The translations under genes were made by a program, and so were the position numbers. This document shows positions 6,101 through 12,838 of a DNA stretch of 64,000 bases, piece by piece. The notes beneath the pieces were generated by a model. The model worked only from the letters and a program-made list of their open reading frames with translations. It searched no databases and was not told where the DNA came from. Position 1 is the first letter of the stretch. Each line of letters starts with the position of its first letter. The stretch is from Dehalococcoidia bacterium (lineage in GTDB: Bacteria > Chloroflexota > Dehalococcoidia > Plut-88900): contig CBDFLQ010000007.1 of assembly GCA_965249275.1 (NCBI GenBank), positions 544,001 to 608,000 of the forward strand, given 5' to 3'.

Positions 6101-7162
6101 ATGAAAATCTTCGATTACATGGAGCAGTACGGCTACGAGGAGCTAGCCCTCTATACTGATGAGGCAGCGGGTCTCAGGGCTCTGATTTGCATTCACGACA
6201 CCACGCTCGGGCCTGCCTGCGGGGGCACCCGCATGTGGCCCTTCGCCACCGAGGAAGAAGCGATCTTGGACGTGTTGCGCCTCGCGAGGGCCATGACCTA
6301 CAAGTCATCGCTGGCCGGTCTCGACTACGGGGGCGGCAAGGCCGTGATTATCGCCGACTCCACCACCGACAAGTCCGAGGCCCTATTCCGCGCCCACGGC
6401 CGTTTTGTCGACACCCTGGGGGGCCGTTTCATCACCACCGAGGACGTCGGCGTCGTGAACCAGGATGTTGTCCACATGCGCAAGGAGACCCGCTACGCTG
6501 CCGGTCTCCCCGAGTCCCACGGCGGACTGGGCGGGGCAGAGGTGATTACCGGGTTCGGAATCTACCAGGGGGCTCGGGCCTGCATGAAGGAGCTCACGGG
6601 CTCCGACTCCCTGGACGGGAAGACCGTCGCCATCCAAGGTTTCGGGAAGGTGGCCTACCACTACGCCCGACACCTGCGGGAAGATGGCGCCCGGATCATC
6701 GCCGCGGACATCAACGAGTCCAGAATTGCTGAGGCGGTTGCACTCGGGGCTTCCATAGTCGCGCCGGAAGAGATACATGCCGTCGAATGCGATATCTTCT
6801 CACCCTGCGCCCTGGGCGCCGCCCTAAACGACGACACCATACCTCAGATCAAGGCTCCCATAGTGGCAGGGGCCGCCAACAACCAACTTAAGGAACCTCA
6901 CCACGCAGACGCCCTCGCCGAGGCCGGCATCCTCTATGCACCCGATTACGCGATCAACGCCGGCGGTGTAATAACCGTAGCCTGTGAGGTTGAGGGTAAG
7001 AGCAGGGATGCCGCCATGTACCGGACTGCCAAGGTCTACGACACTCTTCTGGATATCTTCGCTCGGGCCAAGGCGGAGGGCATCACCACCGCCACCGCCG
7101 CAGACCGCCTCGCCGAGGACCGGATCCGCAGCGTGGCCCACATCAAGCGTACTTCCCCGTAG
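6101..7162 (+). CDS. Leucine (Glu/Leu/Phe/Val) dehydrogenase
   Basis: IHDTTLGPA.GGTRM, MTYK..GGGKAVI, QGFGKV, AGAANNQL and YAPDY.INAGG motifs. Confidence 0.92.
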   Translation: MKIFDYMEQYGYEELALYTDEAAGLRALICIHDTTLGPACGGTRMWPFATEEEAILDVLRLARAMTYKSSLAGLDYGGGKAVIIADSTTDKSEALFRAHGRFVDTLGGRFITTEDVGVVNQDVVHMRKETRYAAGLPESHGGLGGAEVITGFGIYQGARACMKELTGSDSLDGKTVAIQGFGKVAYHYARHLREDGARIIAADINESRIAEAVALGASIVAPEEIHAVECDIFSPCALGAALNDDTIPQIKAPIVAGAANNQLKEPHHADALAEAGILYAPDYAINAGGVITVACEVEGKSRDAAMYRTAKVYDTLLDIFARAKAEGITTATAADRLAEDRIRSVAHIKRTSP

Positions 7163-7208: not shown

Positions 7209-7961
7209 CTACTCTTCGCGTATATTGGCCCGGGCGTCGTGGGGGTAGGTGTTGGTCTCGATCATTCGAGCCTTGACGTCTGTACGGAGCAGGTGAAGCT
7301 CCTCAACCGAGATGATCGGAGTCATCGGCGCAGTCTCGCCACCGCCCTTAATCTTCAGCTCGAAGCCCGTGTTCTCTCTCACCTCTCCGAGTGTGTGCCC
7401 CTGGTGCACAGAGACCAAATCCAATATACCCGACTCCTTCGATAGCTCCATCTTTGCCAGTGGGGTTATTACCACCACTTCCTTGGTCCGGCGGGCGAAG
7501 CCCTCCGGCGAGGAGGAAGCCGCCGAGACATAGTCAACCTTCTCCACGAATGTCCGCCTATCGTGGCGGGTTCGGAACAGGACTATTCGGGGCACGGCAT
7601 AGTAGAGGAGTCCCGTTCCATATTGACCCGGCATCCTGACCTCAGGCGAATCGGGGTCTCCGATGAGGTGCAGGTTGAAGTTGGCTTCCCGGTCTATCTC
7701 GATTCCGCTCATGAAGAAAAGGTCGAGTTTTCCCCGTTGGGCGAGGTAGTGGAAGTCCTTCCCCCCGACGAACGGGTTGTAGTAGTCGCTGTCCAGGACT
7801 ATGAATTCGCCATTCGGGGCGTGGGACGCTTCGGCTAGAAGAAGTGCGGAGGCCGGTATGAAAGACAGAGCACCACAGGCCGAGGTCTCCCAGTCATGCA
7901 CCTCCCGCGACAGGAGGACGGCCATGAACTCTTCGAATGTGCAGTTAGGCGGTTGAGACAC
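7209..7961 (-). CDS. Class I CoA-transferase-fold protein, beta subunit
   Basis: GTG start overlaps the alpha-subunit stop (TAGTG). FFMSGIEID..ANFNL, FVEKVDYVS, VITPLA and V.ENTGF motifs. Confidence 0.8.
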   Translation of the reverse strand: MSQPPNCTFEEFMAVLLSREVHDWETSACGALSFIPASALLLAEASHAPNGEFIVLDSDYYNPFVGGKDFHYLAQRGKLDLFFMSGIEIDREANFNLHLIGDPDSPEVRMPGQYGTGLLYYAVPRIVLFRTRHDRRTFVEKVDYVSAASSSPEGFARRTKEVVVITPLAKMELSKESGILDLVSVHQGHTLGEVRENTGFELKIKGGGETAPMTPIISVEELHLLRTDVKARMIETNTYPHDARANIREE

Positions 7962-8830
7962 TACCCCACCGCAGCAGGCGCCCGAACCCCCAGACCTCGC
8001 GACCGGCAATAGTCCTCGTGGTCGTGCAAGGCGTATACCTCATCGGCCAGGTAACCTTCAAAGGCCTCGTCGGAAGAGGAGGCCTCGAGGTACTTCTTCA
8101 TCTCCTCCACGTCCATGCCATAGAAGCCCGGGCACGCGCTGGGGTAGGCCCCGAAAGGCGCGTGGGCCACGGCCTTGATGTGGATTGCAGGAATGAAAGT
8201 CCCCGTTGGATCGTTCGGTGAGACCGAATCAACGACCTCCTCAACCGTCACTATCACCTTGTCCGACGCCTGCGCCAGCATCAAGGCTTCCCCGCCTTTG
8301 CTGACCAATACGTTGCCCCGACTGTCGCCCTTGCTTCCGTGGAACAATGCAACGTCAGGTGTTATGGCCTTGGCCATCACCACCATCTCCGTGGGGTCGA
8401 AGGGGTTGGGAGCCATGGTGAAGTCGTCTCTTTCCCTGATAACATCACTGCCGGCGTAGCCGAGGGTCGGGACGAAGGGGACGCCCATTGATCCAGCCTG
8501 GACCATGCTATAGAGCACGCCTCAGGTGTTGTCTTTCATTTTGATGCGGCCCTGCTTCTGGAGGCGCAGGTAGTTGGGCGCCACCCTGGCGAAGGGCTGG
8601 AAGTTAAAATCGCAGGTCTCCACAGTAGCCGTCCGACCCGCCCCGACCAGGAAGTCGAGATTCAGCGAAGCGCCCACCACACCGAGAGTGTTCAGGTCAG
8701 TGGTCCCGCCCCTGACTATCTCCCTCAATAGCGCCATTGGGGTGTAGTCCAGGCCCCCCATCATTATCACTTTGTCGCCGGTGCGTACCAGCTTGGCGGC
8801 CTGTTCCAGGGTTACGAGTTTGTCTCTCAT
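7961..8830 (-). CDS. Class I CoA-transferase-fold protein, alpha subunit, with in-frame UGA at codon 103 (candidate selenoprotein)
   Basis: ORFs 8522-8830 and 7961-8518 are in the same frame, separated only by TGA-GGC. Joined they give 289 aa with KLVTLEQAAK..GD, PMALLREI, GVPFVP..GSDV, PDVALFH..D.RGNV and IVTVEEVV motifs. Confidence 0.8.
8482..8521 (-). promoter_or_regulatory. Bacterial SECIS-like stem-loop directly 3' of the in-frame UGA
   Basis: Minus strand reads UGA GGCGU GCUCUAU AGCA UGGUCC AGGCU GGAUCA AUGGGC G. Upper stem UGGUCC/GGAUCA has a G-containing apical loop; lower stem is GCUC.AU/AUGGGC. Confidence 0.55.
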
Positions 8831-8958
8831 TTTCCCTTCCTTAGCTGTCTCTACTTGGGGGCTGCGGGCCTTCCTGTTCCCTAACGTGAGGGTATATTCA
8901 GGGGTATCCGGTGTCAAGGAAAAGATGGCGCTTGGGGCCGACGCCCAAGGGCCTGGAG

Positions 8959-11355
8959 CTAGGTCGGGGTGCGGGCTCGGGCTCCGCCGAACCGGGCCTG
9001 GACACGACGCAGTATCACCCCGAATTCCCGGTTCTCCCACATCACCAGAATCTGCGGTCCTATCAGCATGGAACTGTACGTTCCGGCAATCACGCCGATG
9101 AGCAGTACCAGGATAAACGGCAGCAGCGTACTTCCGCCAAAGAGGGCCAGGGCCATCAGCGTGAACAGCGTTGTCAGGCTGGTGTTCAGCGATCGTCCCA
9201 TCGTCTCCAGCAGGCTGTTGTTCACGGTGACTTCGAACTGCTCGCCCGTCCGCTTGAGCATGTTCTCCCTGATGCGGTCGAAGACTACGATGGTGTTGTT
9301 AATGCTGTAACCGATCACTGCCAGGATGGCGGTGATCACCATTGTATTCAGCTCAATCCCGAACACCTTCCCCATGATCGAGAAGAGGCCCAGTACAATC
9401 AGGACGTCGTGGGTCAGGGCAAATACGGCCGATAGGCTATATCGGAAGAAATGGGGCATCTTACGAAATGCCCACGCTATGTATAAGAAAACGCCGATTA
9501 TTGCGAATAGGACTGCCAGCGCTGCGTTGCGCACCATCTCAGCGGCCACTATCGGCGACACGAAGTCGACCTCGAACCGGTCTATACTCGTCCCCCCGAA
9601 GCGCTGCTCTAACGCCTGCTGAATAAGCTGGCTGTCCGAGGGGCCCACGTTCCCGCTCTGGTCTATCTCACCTTGGCCCAGCGTCTCGGTACGGATGAGG
9701 AACGCGTTTGCCTCCAGGGCCTGAACTATTGCCTCCCCGTGCCCCAGTTCCTCCAGCACCTCGCGTACCGCCTGAGACGTAACCGCACCGGTCGTGAGTC
9801 TCGACAGATCGGAGGGGTTTATGAACCGAACCTCAATGGTCGAGCCGCTTGAGAACTCGATGCCCGTGTTGAAGGCCGGAGGGAATATCAGGGACACGAT
9901 GCCCGGTAACAGGACCGCCCCAGAGATAACGAAGTACCAGACCCGCTTGTTGACCAGGTTCAGCCCACGCCGGGGGGTTGAAGCCTCGACCACCTGAGCC
10001 CCGGCCTTGCCCAGCCCGAACAACCCCGGTTTCTCTTGCACCCGGGCCCCGACGACGAACCTGAGGAAACTCCTGGTCACGAACATCGCCGAGAACATGC
10101 TCGTCACCACGCCGATGGCCAGCGTGATCGCAAATCCGGTTACCAGCGGCGTCCCCAGCTTGTTGCCGAACCACCACAAGATGGCGCAGGTAATCAGTGT
10201 CGAGACATTGCTGTCACGGATAGCCACCCAGGCCCGGTTGAACCCCGCTTCAATACCGACCCTCAGACTTCGACCGGCTCGTAATTCCTCTTTCAGTCTT
10301 TCGAATATAAGGACGTTGGCATCGACCGCCATGCCGATGGACAAGATGAATCCGGCGATGCCCGAGAGCGTAAGGGTCACGGGAAGCAGCTTGAACGTCG
10401 ACAGCACCACCATCCCGTAAATGACGAGCGCTCCCGCGGAAAGGACGCCGGGCAGCCTGTAGTAGAACATCAGGAACCCGAGGACGAGAAGCAAACCCAC
10501 CACCCCTGCTACCAGGCTCTTGCTGACCGACTCCGCGCCCAGCGTTGCGTCAACGTCCTGCTCGCGTATCGTCTGGATGGGAATGGGAAGGGCGCCCGCG
10601 TTTAGCTGAATGGCCAAGACGTCTGCTTCGTCTAGAGAGAGCCCCGTAATTACACCGTTTCTCGATATGACGGCTTGCACTGTTGGGGAAGAGATGAGGC
10701 CCCCGTCAAGATGTATCCCCAGGGGCTGGTTGAGCAGCCTGCTCGTAACTCTCTCGAACATCCTGGCGCCTTCGTCATTGAACTCGAAGGCGACTTGGGG
10801 GAGGTTGGTGCTCGGGTCAAGCAATACCTGGGAGGTAGGGAGCAGGAATTCACCCGTGACAGGCGCCAATTGGCCGGTATCGTTTGTGGTCAGGGCCGGG
10901 TCCCAGATGATACTGCCAGTGGTGGGATCGGTAACGAAAGTACCGTCTTCCTTGCGTCTCTGCTCCCGGAAATCAAGCTGGGCCGTCTTGCCAATGAGGC
11001 TCTTAGCTTGTTCCACGTCTTTGATGCCGGGTATCTGCACCATGATACGGTCGTCCCCGACCCTCTGCACGATGGGCTCCGACACCCCGAACGCGTCTAC
11101 CCGGCGCCGGATTATGCTAATGACGCCCTCCATCTGGGAGTCGGTGACGACTTCTCCCTCAGGGGGGATAGCCTCGTAGACGAGGTGGGTGCCGCCCTTG
11201 ATGTCCAGCCCTTGCCGGAATCCCTCCCTGTCAAGGCCGGGCGTCTTATTCGGGACCAGGACCACCAGGGCTGCAATGACGAGCAGGCCGATGATTATCA
11301 GGCTTAGGGTGTTGCCCTTCGGAAAGAGCTTGTATAGCCGGAGAAGTATGATCAA
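8959..11355 (-). CDS. secDF: Fused protein translocase subunit SecDF
   Basis: SecD motifs GLDIKGG, RRRVDAFGVSEP and GMAVDANVLIFER, followed in the same ORF by SecF motifs GIEFSSG and GYSINNTIVVFDRIRE. Confidence 0.95.
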   Translation of the reverse strand: MIILLRLYKLFPKGNTLSLIIIGLLVIAALVVLVPNKTPGLDREGFRQGLDIKGGTHLVYEAIPPEGEVVTDSQMEGVISIIRRRVDAFGVSEPIVQRVGDDRIMVQIPGIKDVEQAKSLIGKTAQLDFREQRRKEDGTFVTDPTTGSIIWDPALTTNDTGQLAPVTGEFLLPTSQVLLDPSTNLPQVAFEFNDEGARMFERVTSRLLNQPLGIHLDGGLISSPTVQAVISRNGVITGLSLDEADVLAIQLNAGALPIPIQTIREQDVDATLGAESVSKSLVAGVVGLLLVLGFLMFYYRLPGVLSAGALVIYGMVVLSTFKLLPVTLTLSGIAGFILSIGMAVDANVLIFERLKEELRAGRSLRVGIEAGFNRAWVAIRDSNVSTLITCAILWWFGNKLGTPLVTGFAITLAIGVVTSMFSAMFVTRSFLRFVVGARVQEKPGLFGLGKAGAQVVEASTPRRGLNLVNKRVWYFVISGAVLLPGIVSLIFPPAFNTGIEFSSGSTIEVRFINPSDLSRLTTGAVTSQAVREVLEELGHGEAIVQALEANAFLIRTETLGQGEIDQSGNVGPSDSQLIQQALEQRFGGTSIDRFEVDFVSPIVAAEMVRNAALAVLFAIIGVFLYIAWAFRKMPHFFRYSLSAVFALTHDVLIVLGLFSIMGKVFGIELNTMVITAILAVIGYSINNTIVVFDRIRENMLKRTGEQFEVTVNNSLLETMGRSLNTSLTTLFTLMALALFGGSTLLPFILVLLIGVIAGTYSSMLIGPQILVMWENREFGVILRRVQARFGGARARTPT

Positions 11356-12053: not shown

Positions 12054-12838
12054 TGTACTCGTTCGGTAGATTAGTGACACACCGGAGTTTCATTCAGTCC
12101 TCCTGAGGCGGACCCGCCCAAGGCGGATGTTCCATCTTCGATTGTGGGGTTTCGGTTTCCGTTCTGTCTGTTAGGTTTTGGGAAGGCGATGAAAGGTCCG
12201 TGACTAGGATCCAGGCCGGAGTTTGTTGCCGAGCCGTCAGCGCCGGGCTGGCTTATCCCCACATGTTCTCGGCTGTGGTCAGGGTTGTGTGGGGCCGATC
12301 CTTCCGGCAGCGGCACTTGACCGGACCGCTGACGGGGAACATGCCGCCTGAGGCGGACTTTCAGAACCGGCGTCCCGGTGCATCGGTCGTAGAGACGGAT
12401 GGCGGGGACGGCGGGACAAACAAGGCACGAGGGCCTTGCTAGACCGGGGGTCGGTTGACCTACCCGGGAAACCGGCGCGCAATGGGCCGGAGTAAACGCA
12501 TCCGGTAATGGGAAGCGTTGAATCGGCAGGGGCGTCGTAGGACGGGGCCTGCCGCGTATAGTCTGTGGACCTTCCATCGCCTGGGCGCTGGGGAAGGGAT
12601 AGCCGGGGCCTTTGTATGAGGAGATGGCGGCGTTTGCTTGAGCCGTGGGGCGGCATGGGCCGCCCTTTGGGATGGGCTTAGACGTTGAGTCCTCGGGGCC
12701 GGGGCTGGTGTTCCCCCTGGGTTGTGTGTTCCTCCTTTGGGTTTAGGGTGAGTGGCTGGCCAGCCGGGGGTGAATATAGTACATGTGTGCAAGTCTGGTC
12801 AAGGGGTTCGTGTCACTTTTGGGAGGGCAAGAGGCTCA
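12054..12838. mobile_element. Non-autonomous ~785-bp element, copy A (IS481-like left end, decayed right end), between priA and def
   Basis: Left end TGTACTCGTTCGGTAGATTAGTGACA is nearly identical to copy B. About 140 nt at the left and 200 nt at the right are homologous to 41488-42288. Right end TGTCAC...CTCA. Flanks GGTCG/TGTCA match only partly. Confidence 0.65.
12773..12802 (-). promoter_or_regulatory. Sigma70-type promoter inside element A, with LexA-like box
   Basis: TTGACC-18nt-TATATT on the minus strand, with GCAC-ACAT-GTAC abutting the -10. Same position as the promoter in copy B. Confidence 0.55.

Follow-up and report, generated by a model that had tools for sequence, protein, structure and literature searches.

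A selenocysteine almost certainly encoded in the active site of a CoA-transferase-fold protein with two subunits in a Dehalococcoidia bacterium

A gene pair in the 64,000-nucleotide window (the whole stretch of DNA that was analyzed) from a Dehalococcoidia bacterium raises the question of whether an in-frame TGA in the alpha subunit gene is a stop or a selenocysteine (Sec) codon, and what a Sec would do in a CoA-transferase fold. The alpha and beta genes (Table 1) would form a two-subunit enzyme and appear to be translationally coupled, with a one-base overlap (TAGTG) between the stop of alpha and the GTG of beta; this GTG start was placed from the sequence itself and from orthologue HSPs beginning at residue 16. 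Pfam CoA_trans (PF01144) matched both subunits, giving this fold in beta (32.5 bits) as well as in alpha, where one continuous domain ran across both halves (residues 9-223, 56.6 bits). The AF2 model of alpha (pLDDT 95.0) matched solved folds in Foldseek with TM values of 0.86 to GctA (1poi_A) and 0.85-0.87 to IpdA, and alpha is assigned to the GctA/AibA/IpdA branch of the CoA-transferase fold. The frame was open apart from codon 103, in the context KMKDNT-U-GVLYSMVQAG, as claimed in a sequence-only reading that had described a single in-frame TGA between two intact halves.

Table 1. Features of the alpha-beta gene pair, in coordinates of the window.
Feature	Position	Strand	Details
Putative Shine-Dalgarno-like stretch	8835..8842	minus	purine-rich AAGGAAGG; few bases 5' of the alpha ATG; read directly from the sequence
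Alpha subunit gene	7961..8830	minus	289 codons including Sec103; ATG 8830-8828, stop TAG 7963-7961
In-frame TGA (U103)	8522..8524	minus	sole TGA in an otherwise open frame, ATG 8830 to TAG 7963-7961
SECIS-like hairpin	8489..8505	minus	UGGUCCA-GGC-UGGAUCA; 7 bp, GGC apical loop
Beta subunit gene	7209..7961	minus	probable start GTG 7961-7959; ORF 7209-8009

Comparison of homologues revealed the TGA at the same column in all 16 close (best) orthologues, at identities from 100% down to 35%, and its recurrence in every close orthologue examined argues that the codon is not there by chance. The DNT-x-G clade, including Chloroflexota, Betaproteobacteria, SAR324, and others, carried TGA in 66 of 67 loci and TGC in the remaining one. 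Among 86 aligned sequences, the 16 TGA forms were accompanied by 50 full-length homologues with Cys at the Sec column in the motif D-x-T-C-[GP], which confirmed both the D.TCP motif given in the sequence-only reading and the Cys/TGA alternation for which it had proposed to search. A second subclade (EH[TA]-U/C) likewise alternated between Sec and Cys, and a scan of the phylum identified five further TGA places in four other genomes, of which the four that were checked all fell at the Sec column. The possibility of an assembly error was also checked: contigs of four independent runs (studies) bridged the codon, and the 40 differences listed, of 116, include none at 8522-8524. TGA ended 239 of 916 long frames in the genome, where it is an ordinary stop, and it has therefore not been reassigned genome-wide. 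The TGA in alpha almost certainly encodes Sec at the active site.

A stem-loop with a G-containing apical loop had been described just downstream of the codon; the hairpin exists with a GGC loop, but the conserved one starts 17 nt after the UGA (16-nt spacer, 23 nt from UGA to loop) and is not adjacent to it. The published bSECIS model includes a loop of 3-9 nt that carries a G within its first two nucleotides, a stem of 4-16 bp, a UGA-to-loop distance of 16-37 nt, and a minimum free energy of -7.5 kcal/mol or lower (PMC13188914). The hairpin agreed with this model in loop, stem, G position, and spacing, while its folding energy reached the model value only with flanks (-13.3 kcal/mol over 48 nt), the core hairpin alone being weaker (-6.4 kcal/mol). 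The 76-nt region after the UGA did not exceed shuffles in stability (z = -0.24), so it is conservation and covariation that speak for the hairpin. In a set of 71 sequences (58 distinct), 96.3% of cells were paired compared to 84.2% in shuffled sequences, a value reached by none of 500 shuffles, and three pairs changed on both sides (slid controls, 23-48%). At columns 23/33, a non-synonymous U-to-C change (23) was matched by a synonymous GGA-to-GGG change (33), yielding 29 UA and 27 CG pairs. In addition, CAG-GCU was kept at wobble positions, and the Cys form L155 read CAG GCC GCA and was without the hairpin; only five Cys-form DNA sequences were usable as hairpin controls.

A search for the Sec machinery identified selA (541.3 bits), selB (369.4 bits), and selD (388.7 bits) in this genome, all above cut-offs, with selD itself carrying one TGA. 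In this assembly, which is 87% complete, neither Rfam RF01852 nor ARAGORN in default and relaxed modes located the tRNA-Sec gene selC, nor did cmscan reveal a tRNA-Sec around selA, selB, and selD. The RF01852 matches in the assembly were rejected as tRNA-Ser, and the relaxed ARAGORN calls were rejected as implausible, one of them being a 10-copy 85-nt repeat. All five congeners (same-genus genomes) carry selC, and their whole selC region was without a match in the 87%-complete assembly. The selB gene was also present in all four TGA-form genomes tested from other taxa.

The AF2 model placed Sec at the first residue, the N-terminal end, of a helix (residues 104-116) that follows a strand. HMMER paired it with the Glu in the IpdA segment REMD-E-G (6co6_A, 6con_A), and in 6coj_A, titled 'IpdAB E105A' in the PDB, the aligned residue was Ala; the correspondence with IpdA REMDEG and its Glu105 proposed from the sequence was therefore recovered. 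The beta ORF did read APNGEFIVLDS in translation, and the accompanying claim that beta is without the catalytic Glu was borne out in substance but not in position, as the Glu site lies three residues further on. The canonical catalytic Glu aligned with the Leu of FIV-L-DS and not with the P of PNG. A 'PNG' derived by mutation from 'ENG' was rejected by this alignment, and the HAPN motif was common to all branches of the beta subunit. Glu occupied the beta Glu site in all 14 canonical partners and in none of the 83 U-type, three C-type (0/86 U/C), or five E-type partners, and the beta Glu (x-E-x-G) of class I CoA-transferases is replaced by Leu here. Because beta has lost the CoA-carrying Glu, the enzyme is not a CoA-transferase, and its catalytic residue is likely Sec or Cys. 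The U/C sequences formed one group beside alpha-Glu sequences in a quick tree in which support for that group was only 84 and IpdA itself was absent.

The closest match in sequence and fold was the class I glutaconate CoA-transferase GctAB of Acidaminococcus fermentans (PDB 1POI; 1.5e-35, 32% identity), which shares PF01144 and the alpha-beta gene pair but differs in its catalytic beta Glu, present in none of the U/C-type partners, and in the Gln of GctA at the Sec column. Also close is IpdAB, which hydrolyzes ring C of COCHEA-CoA in steroid catabolism (Rhodococcus jostii, M. tuberculosis; PDB 6CO6, 6CO9, 6COJ, 6CON). Both systems have the two-subunit CoA-transferase fold, a beta subunit without the transferase Glu, and a functional residue that lies on alpha in the matching column of the alignment. 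They differ in that this residue is Glu105 in IpdA compared to Sec (Cys in relatives) here, identity is only 24%, HMMER gives a weaker E-value (2.7e-18) than for GctA, and no steroid-catabolic neighbors were seen here; environmental alpha-Glu sequences fell outside the U/C group in the quick tree without IpdA.

The proposed mechanism begins with UGA codon 103, which would be decoded as Sec by SelB and tRNA-Sec under the direction of the GGC-loop hairpin. The catalytic residue would have moved to alpha as in IpdAB, Sec, or Cys in relatives, taking the place of Glu. We infer a selenolate at the helix N-terminus in the alpha/beta active-site cleft that would be the catalytic nucleophile and attack an acyl-CoA-type substrate at a carbonyl or an activated double bond, and the outcome would be covalent, thiolase- or hydrolase-like chemistry. 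Taken as a whole, a Sec-decoded, non-transferase, two-subunit enzyme with Sec as the catalytic nucleophile is the probable explanation.

A genuine active-site Sec could also serve as a general acid/base in an AibAB-like decarboxylase, isomerase, or hydratase of a glutaconyl-type acyl-CoA, without a covalent intermediate, and this is considered unlikely. Selenols have a low pKa and are poor proton donors at neutral pH, and a swap between Sec and Cys is characteristic of residues with nucleophilic or redox roles. The IpdAB residue at or near the Sec site acts as an acid or base rather than as a nucleophile. Acid/base chemistry is also consistent with AibA/AibB from Myxococcus xanthus (PDB 5MZW-5N03), a 3-methylglutaconyl-CoA decarboxylase that has the CoA-transferase fold without transferase activity and a Cys in the active-site cleft; AibA was the second-best solved relative (7.7e-24) and AibB the best match of beta (1.4e-11). 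Subclade b reads REH[TA]-U/C-Y compared to REHDGY in AibA, and a leucine-type dehydrogenase gene, a conserved convergent neighbor in three of this family's genomes, is in keeping with a theme of branched-chain acyl-CoAs, but that link is limited to one family. To our knowledge, there are no Sec forms of AibAB. In AibAB, the residue at or near the Sec site acts as an acid or base and not as a nucleophile, a Cys in the same cleft having been proposed as proton donor (PMC7756340). This is Cys56 of AibB, which replaces the beta Glu (PMC7756340), whereas here that site on beta is Leu, and the Cys/Sec lies on alpha at a position that is Gly in AibA.

A redox role for a genuine Sec, by reductive cleavage as in the glycine and proline reductase B proteins or by a selenenyl-sulfide couple, is suggested by the fact that most catalogued prokaryotic selenoproteins are redox proteins and is very improbable here. 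The context DNT-U-G has neither a UxxC nor a CxxU motif, the domain searches gave no redox cofactor domain, and the fold and its relatives carry out acyl-CoA chemistry. C74 was the one nearby invariant Cys in alpha and was set aside as a selenenyl-sulfide partner, being shared with non-Sec GctA. The pair resembles GrdB (glycine reductase) and PrdB (D-proline reductase), in which Sec attacks carbon, as a catabolic enzyme outside the thioredoxin fold that has Cys homologues and Sec decoded by a bacterial SECIS within the coding region; it differs in its unrelated fold, in having no UxxC motif, and in having no reductase partner proteins encoded near the alpha-beta pair. The least likely alternative, and a remote one, is that the TGA is a true stop (a pseudogene or two split peptides), an assembly error, or part of another genetic code: database gene calls end or start at it (62 of 120 listed homologues are C-terminal pieces starting just after it), a GTG lies two codons past it, and the assembly yielded no selC, but the TGA persists across phyla and at identities as low as about 35%, purifying selection acts on both halves, the codon aligns with Cys, and a covarying hairpin follows it, while the bridging contigs speak against an assembly error and the use of TGA as an ordinary stop against another code.

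The nucleophilic Sec enzyme would be a new kind of selenoprotein, with Sec in an acyl-CoA-processing fold where a relative uses a carboxylate, whereas the catalogued prokaryotic ones are almost all redox proteins. The family is widespread and is absent from the selenoprotein catalogues examined, including the 119-family catalogue of 2026, in which no Sec CoA-transferase-fold family was found. It was frequent in SAR202/Dehalococcoidia and uncultured Betaproteobacteria, and as had been predicted for standard annotation, gene callers truncate the gene. Because C-terminal stumps make up about half of the database entries listed, metabolic reconstructions of SAR202/Dehalococcoidia and Betaproteobacteria miss an enzyme and a selenium requirement. 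The U/C forms add a third state (Sec/Cys) to the beta-to-alpha shift of the catalytic residue in the CoA-transferase superfamily and give a natural Glu/Cys/Sec series for studying the contribution of selenium to catalysis. More tentatively, and less likely than not, this could be the first selenoenzyme in which Sec, set in a CoA-transferase scaffold, catalyzes covalent, non-redox chemistry on an acyl-CoA-type substrate, with C-C or C-S cleavage via a selenoester or seleno-adduct; some of the carbon catabolism in SAR202/Dehalococcoidia, and in many Betaproteobacteria of fresh water and groundwater, would then require selenium.

Gene neighborhoods differed between taxa and name no substrate. No partner gene was common across phyla in a Pfam search of 13 loci (120 of 144 ORFs, with antisense and overlapping ones dropped) or in ORF clustering over 67 loci, and only the alpha-beta pair was conserved. 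Higher neighbor counts for alpha/beta-hydrolase (48) and esterase (30) were rejected, as they were inflated by antisense ORFs over alpha/beta. The clusters over the 67 loci included the TctC receptor (28), cupin (8), alpha/beta-hydrolase (7), esterase (5), FAA-hydrolase (5), PHB-type esterase (5), and 2-hydroxyacid dehydrogenase (4). In the window, the neighbors of the pair were SecDF, the Leu-type dehydrogenase, peptide deformylase, and PriA, with other neighbors in other taxa.

Selenocysteine (Sec) is almost certainly encoded by the in-frame TGA at codon 103 of the alpha gene, based on the conservation of this codon, cysteine in homologues, a downstream hairpin, the Sec machinery, and the exclusion of assembly error and code reassignment. 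The codon lies within KMKDNT-U-GVLYSMVQAG and the sequence just ahead of the alpha start codon is AAGGAAGG. Re-reading the ORF on the minus strand showed all coordinates and residues of the sequence-only reading to be right. Read through, alpha has 289 residues with one Pfam CoA_trans domain (PF01144; residues 9-223, 56.6 bits). The beta gene likely begins at GTG 7961-7959 with a one-base overlap with the alpha stop (TAGTG), judging from the sequence itself and from orthologue matches that start at residue 16 of the long ORF.

Positions in the window of the alpha-beta gene pair, its hairpin, and neighboring features.
Feature	Position	Strand	Remark
Alpha ORF	ATG 8830-8828 to TAG 7963-7961	minus	sole interruption TGA 8524-8522 (codon 103)
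Beta ORF (long form)	7209-8009	minus	PF01144, 32.5 bits
Hairpin UGGUCCA-GGC-UGGAUCA	8505-8489	minus	16 nt past UGA
Convergent dehydrogenase and SecDF flanks	6101-7162 and 8959-11355	plus and minus, respectively	order not kept outside the family of the window
Two overlapping ORFs between deformylase and priA	12071-12792	minus	translations Pro/Arg-rich

Six-frame searching of the genome of the window (G000) and 60 relatives, 61 genomes in all, identified alpha matches in 36. The 16 best places, spanning 100% to 35% identity and four family labels, each contained one TGA at the same alignment column; the other matches (≤37% identity) had no stop, bar one weak 22% match. A phylum-wide scan (401 genomes) yielded a further five TGA places in four other genomes (two in G357 and one each in G108, G319, and G120), four of which were confirmed at the Sec column. 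The pair in G357 are alpha paralogues (C563:1309-2166 and C445:1248-2027), 40% and 35% identical to the query, respectively. An all-prokaryote scan with one genome per species recovered 80 loci, including a DNT-x-G clade of 67 (42-97% identity) with TGA in 66 and TGC in one (L155), where L167 was counted as TGA from a stop inside the match with a context too short to print; the remaining 13 loci (28-34% identity) had N, H, or S. According to record titles, the TGA forms belong to Dehalococcoidia, SAR202, many Betaproteobacteria/Burkholderiales MAGs, SAR324, and a Lambdaproteobacteria MAG. The Sec column, tallied over 29 translated loci together with 57 full-length database proteins, held C (50), TGA (16), N (10), H (3), E (3), M (2), G (1), and L (1), and the Cys homologues shared D-x-T-C-[GP], in line with the D.TCP motif that the sequence-only reading gave for related proteins. 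Cys and TGA also alternated in a second subclade, [RT]EH[TA]-x-[AYI], with TGA in L068, L080, and L086 and Cys in L041, L065, L067, and L073. Assembly error and genome-wide TGA reassignment were excluded as causes: of the 916 long stop-to-stop frames in G000, 239 ended in TGA, and codon 103 was bridged by contigs of four runs, each from a different study and one a metatranscriptome; no contig differed at 8522-8524 among the 40 differences listed, with 76 further differences existing.

The stem-loop with a G-containing loop expected downstream of the TGA was found as a hairpin with a GGC loop and a covarying stem. The seven stem pairs formed in 96.3% of cells over 71 sequences with the TGA, 58 of them distinct, versus 84.2% when shuffled (0/500 shuffles as high), and sliding the partner by 1-3 columns gave pairing of only 23-48%. 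Changes on both sides occurred in three pairs, such as pair 23/33 (29 UA vs 27 CG), in which an amino-acid-altering U-to-C (Val/Ile to Ala) was matched by a synonymous Gly GGA-to-GGG change, and CAG-GCU-GG was near-invariant across phyla including wobble positions. The Cys controls totaled five only: L155, the sole Cys form of the DNT-x-G clade, reads CAG GCC GCA with no such hairpin, which was absent as well from the four Cys forms of the second subclade. Core folding energy was -6.4 kcal/mol in the window (-13.3 with flanks) and -8.4 in the betaproteobacterial version, and the 76-nt region was no more stable than shuffles. Loop, G position, stem, and spacing agree with the bacterial SECIS model as published in section 5 of a recent review (PMC13188914).

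The search for Sec machinery gave a mixed outcome. Genes for SelD (388.7 bits), SelA (541.3 bits), and SelB (369.4 bits) were identified in G000, all above curated cut-offs, and selB also occurred in the Cys-form genome and in 4/4 genomes of other taxa with the TGA form. The selC gene (tRNA-Sec) was not found in the 87% complete G000 assembly, although tRNA-Sec with a UCA anticodon was detected in 5/5 same-genus genomes (Rfam match of 95 nt, 65.8-67.3 bits; ARAGORN gene of 99 nt). Searched by blastn against G000, three of the ~3.1-kb tRNA-Sec regions of these congeners (loci L053-L057) gave no match, indicating an assembly gap at selC. Ten near-identical 85-nt stretches in G000 called tRNA-SeC by ARAGORN at a relaxed threshold were rejected as miscalls of a dispersed repeat (e.g., C3:7910-7994, C6:765-849, C6:56272-56356, and C7:168764-168848, all outside the window) that is perhaps part of an insertion sequence. 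The selD gene of G000 (C2:14217-15140, locus L009) likewise contains one in-frame TGA, making its selenophosphate synthetase a probable selenoprotein.

Standard annotation truncates the Sec forms, in keeping with the anticipated splitting of the gene. Among the 120 database homologues listed, 62 had <215 residues and opened with the first Met downstream of the TGA (e.g., MVQAGSMG or MG[IV]PFVPT); the motif occurred in none of these 62 and the Cys motif in 47 of 58 full-length entries. No NCBIfam model names the Sec/Cys alpha family, the best match, TIGR02429, reaching 29.6 bits where its cut-off is 128.5. The 119 families and subfamilies in Table 1 of the 2026 prokaryotic selenoproteome review include no CoA-transferase (PF01144; PMC13188914), and term searches of the 2022 review, the BSepDB main text, and the GOS paper retrieved none, where supplements and the BSepDB database could list it. 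Full-text literature searches likewise returned no Sec-bearing CoA-transferase-fold protein by title and abstract start and, for PMC5736913, by passages. The sequence-only observation is confirmed, and alpha is almost certainly a genuine, widespread selenoprotein absent from the catalogues examined.

The closest solved relatives of alpha by sequence were GctA of glutaconate CoA-transferase (1poi_A, 1.5e-35), AibA of 3-methylglutaconyl-CoA decarboxylase (5mzw_A, 7.7e-24), and IpdA of the steroid ring-C hydrolase (6coj_A, 6co6_A, and 6con_A; 2.7e-18 to 2.1e-15). An AlphaFold model built from 44 sequences (mean pLDDT 95.0, pTM 0.92) gave Foldseek TM scores of 0.86, 0.78, and 0.85-0.87 to GctA, AibA, and IpdA, respectively. 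Sec was predicted as the first residue of helix 104-116, preceded by strand 98-101 (numbering of the modelled protein P0001, starting one residue ahead of Met1), and catalytic Cys or Sec commonly lies at a helix N-terminus. The Sec column holds Gln in GctA and Gly in AibA, whereas in IpdA it holds the Glu of REMD-E-G, as had been proposed from the sequence. Comparing 6coj_A ("IpdAB E105A COCHEA-CoA complex") with 6co6_A placed Ala exactly at this column, and Crowe et al. in 2018 are said to have identified Glu105 as the catalytic residue of IpdAB. This enzyme opens ring C by retro-Claisen hydrolysis (review, PMC6678751).

The canonical transferase Glu (x-E-x-G) was compared in 106 aligned beta sequences paired with their own alphas. 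Glu was absent from beta wherever alpha had U (0/83, mostly Leu; FIV-L-DS in the window), C (0/3), E (0/5), or G (0/1), and present in 14/14 pairs with N, H, M, or S. The suggestion that beta lacks the Glu held, with Leu in its place, but PNG is not a mutated ENG, as HAPN is a common motif three residues upstream of the Glu site. Five other Chloroflexota pairs (L064, L074, L083, L084, and L088) carried Glu aligned with the Sec (EETEA), and beta was Glu-less in four, that of L084 not being recovered; by their residues these would represent an IpdAB-type swap outside any steroid context inspected. Alpha sequences (89, left from 133 once rows >85% identical were removed) were placed in a maximum-likelihood tree from a quick search with SH-aLRT support only. 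Canonical sequences (27 rows) and Glu-less ones (62 rows) separated, each with support 93, and among the Glu-less rows 53 U/C rows formed one group (support 84) adjoining the alpha-Glu sequences. The U/C group comprised two subclades (support 99 each), and the U label must have changed four times or more along the tree. Further residues that set the U/C group apart were alpha G125 and R135 and beta S49, R146, and T147, with R135 common to the alpha-Glu type. Eight loci with "Bordetella parapertussis" or "Streptomycetaceae" MAG titles (L113, L114, L116, L121, L127, L134, L157, and L154) fell amid Burkholderiales MAGs, and the organism labels of these environmental MAGs are probably unreliable.

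The pair has a class I CoA-transferase scaffold that lost the residue forming the enzyme-CoA thioester and gained Sec or Cys at the alpha position used by IpdAB; by alignment, Sec occupies the equivalent of IpdA Glu105 in a Glu-less heterodimer. A selenol has a low pKa and high nucleophilicity, which together with the Sec/Cys exchange suggests residue 103 as the catalytic nucleophile. In a CoA-bound acid it may attack a carbonyl or an activated double bond, and the seleno-adduct would lead to hydrolase-, thiolase-, or retro-Claisen-type chemistry. The main alternative is that residue 103 serves as an acid/base in an isomerization or an AibAB-like decarboxylation, for which a beta-subunit Cys in the cleft of AibAB has been proposed as proton donor (PMC7756340). 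A redox center is less likely, as alpha lacks UxxC and CxxU motifs and no cofactor domain was found in it. A nucleophilic residue 103 with hydrolase or thiolase chemistry, as proposed from the sequence alone, is plausible.

Gene context in the window, other Chloroflexota, and the 67 clade loci named no substrate. The order SecDF, alpha, beta, and a convergent Leu/Val-type dehydrogenase was shared by the window and two relatives (L102 and L091; 83% and 63% alpha identity). Neighbors in other Chloroflexota were an acyl-CoA synthetase, an FAD oxidase with an aminotransferase, a NUDIX gene with a ketopantoate-reductase-like gene, or an IMPDH/FMN-dehydrogenase-like gene. TctC-type carboxylate receptors occurred at 28 of the 67 clade loci and cupins at eight, and alpha/beta-hydrolases, esterases, FAA-family hydrolases, and 2-hydroxyacid dehydrogenases at 4-7 each. 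The sole constant partner of alpha was the beta subunit.
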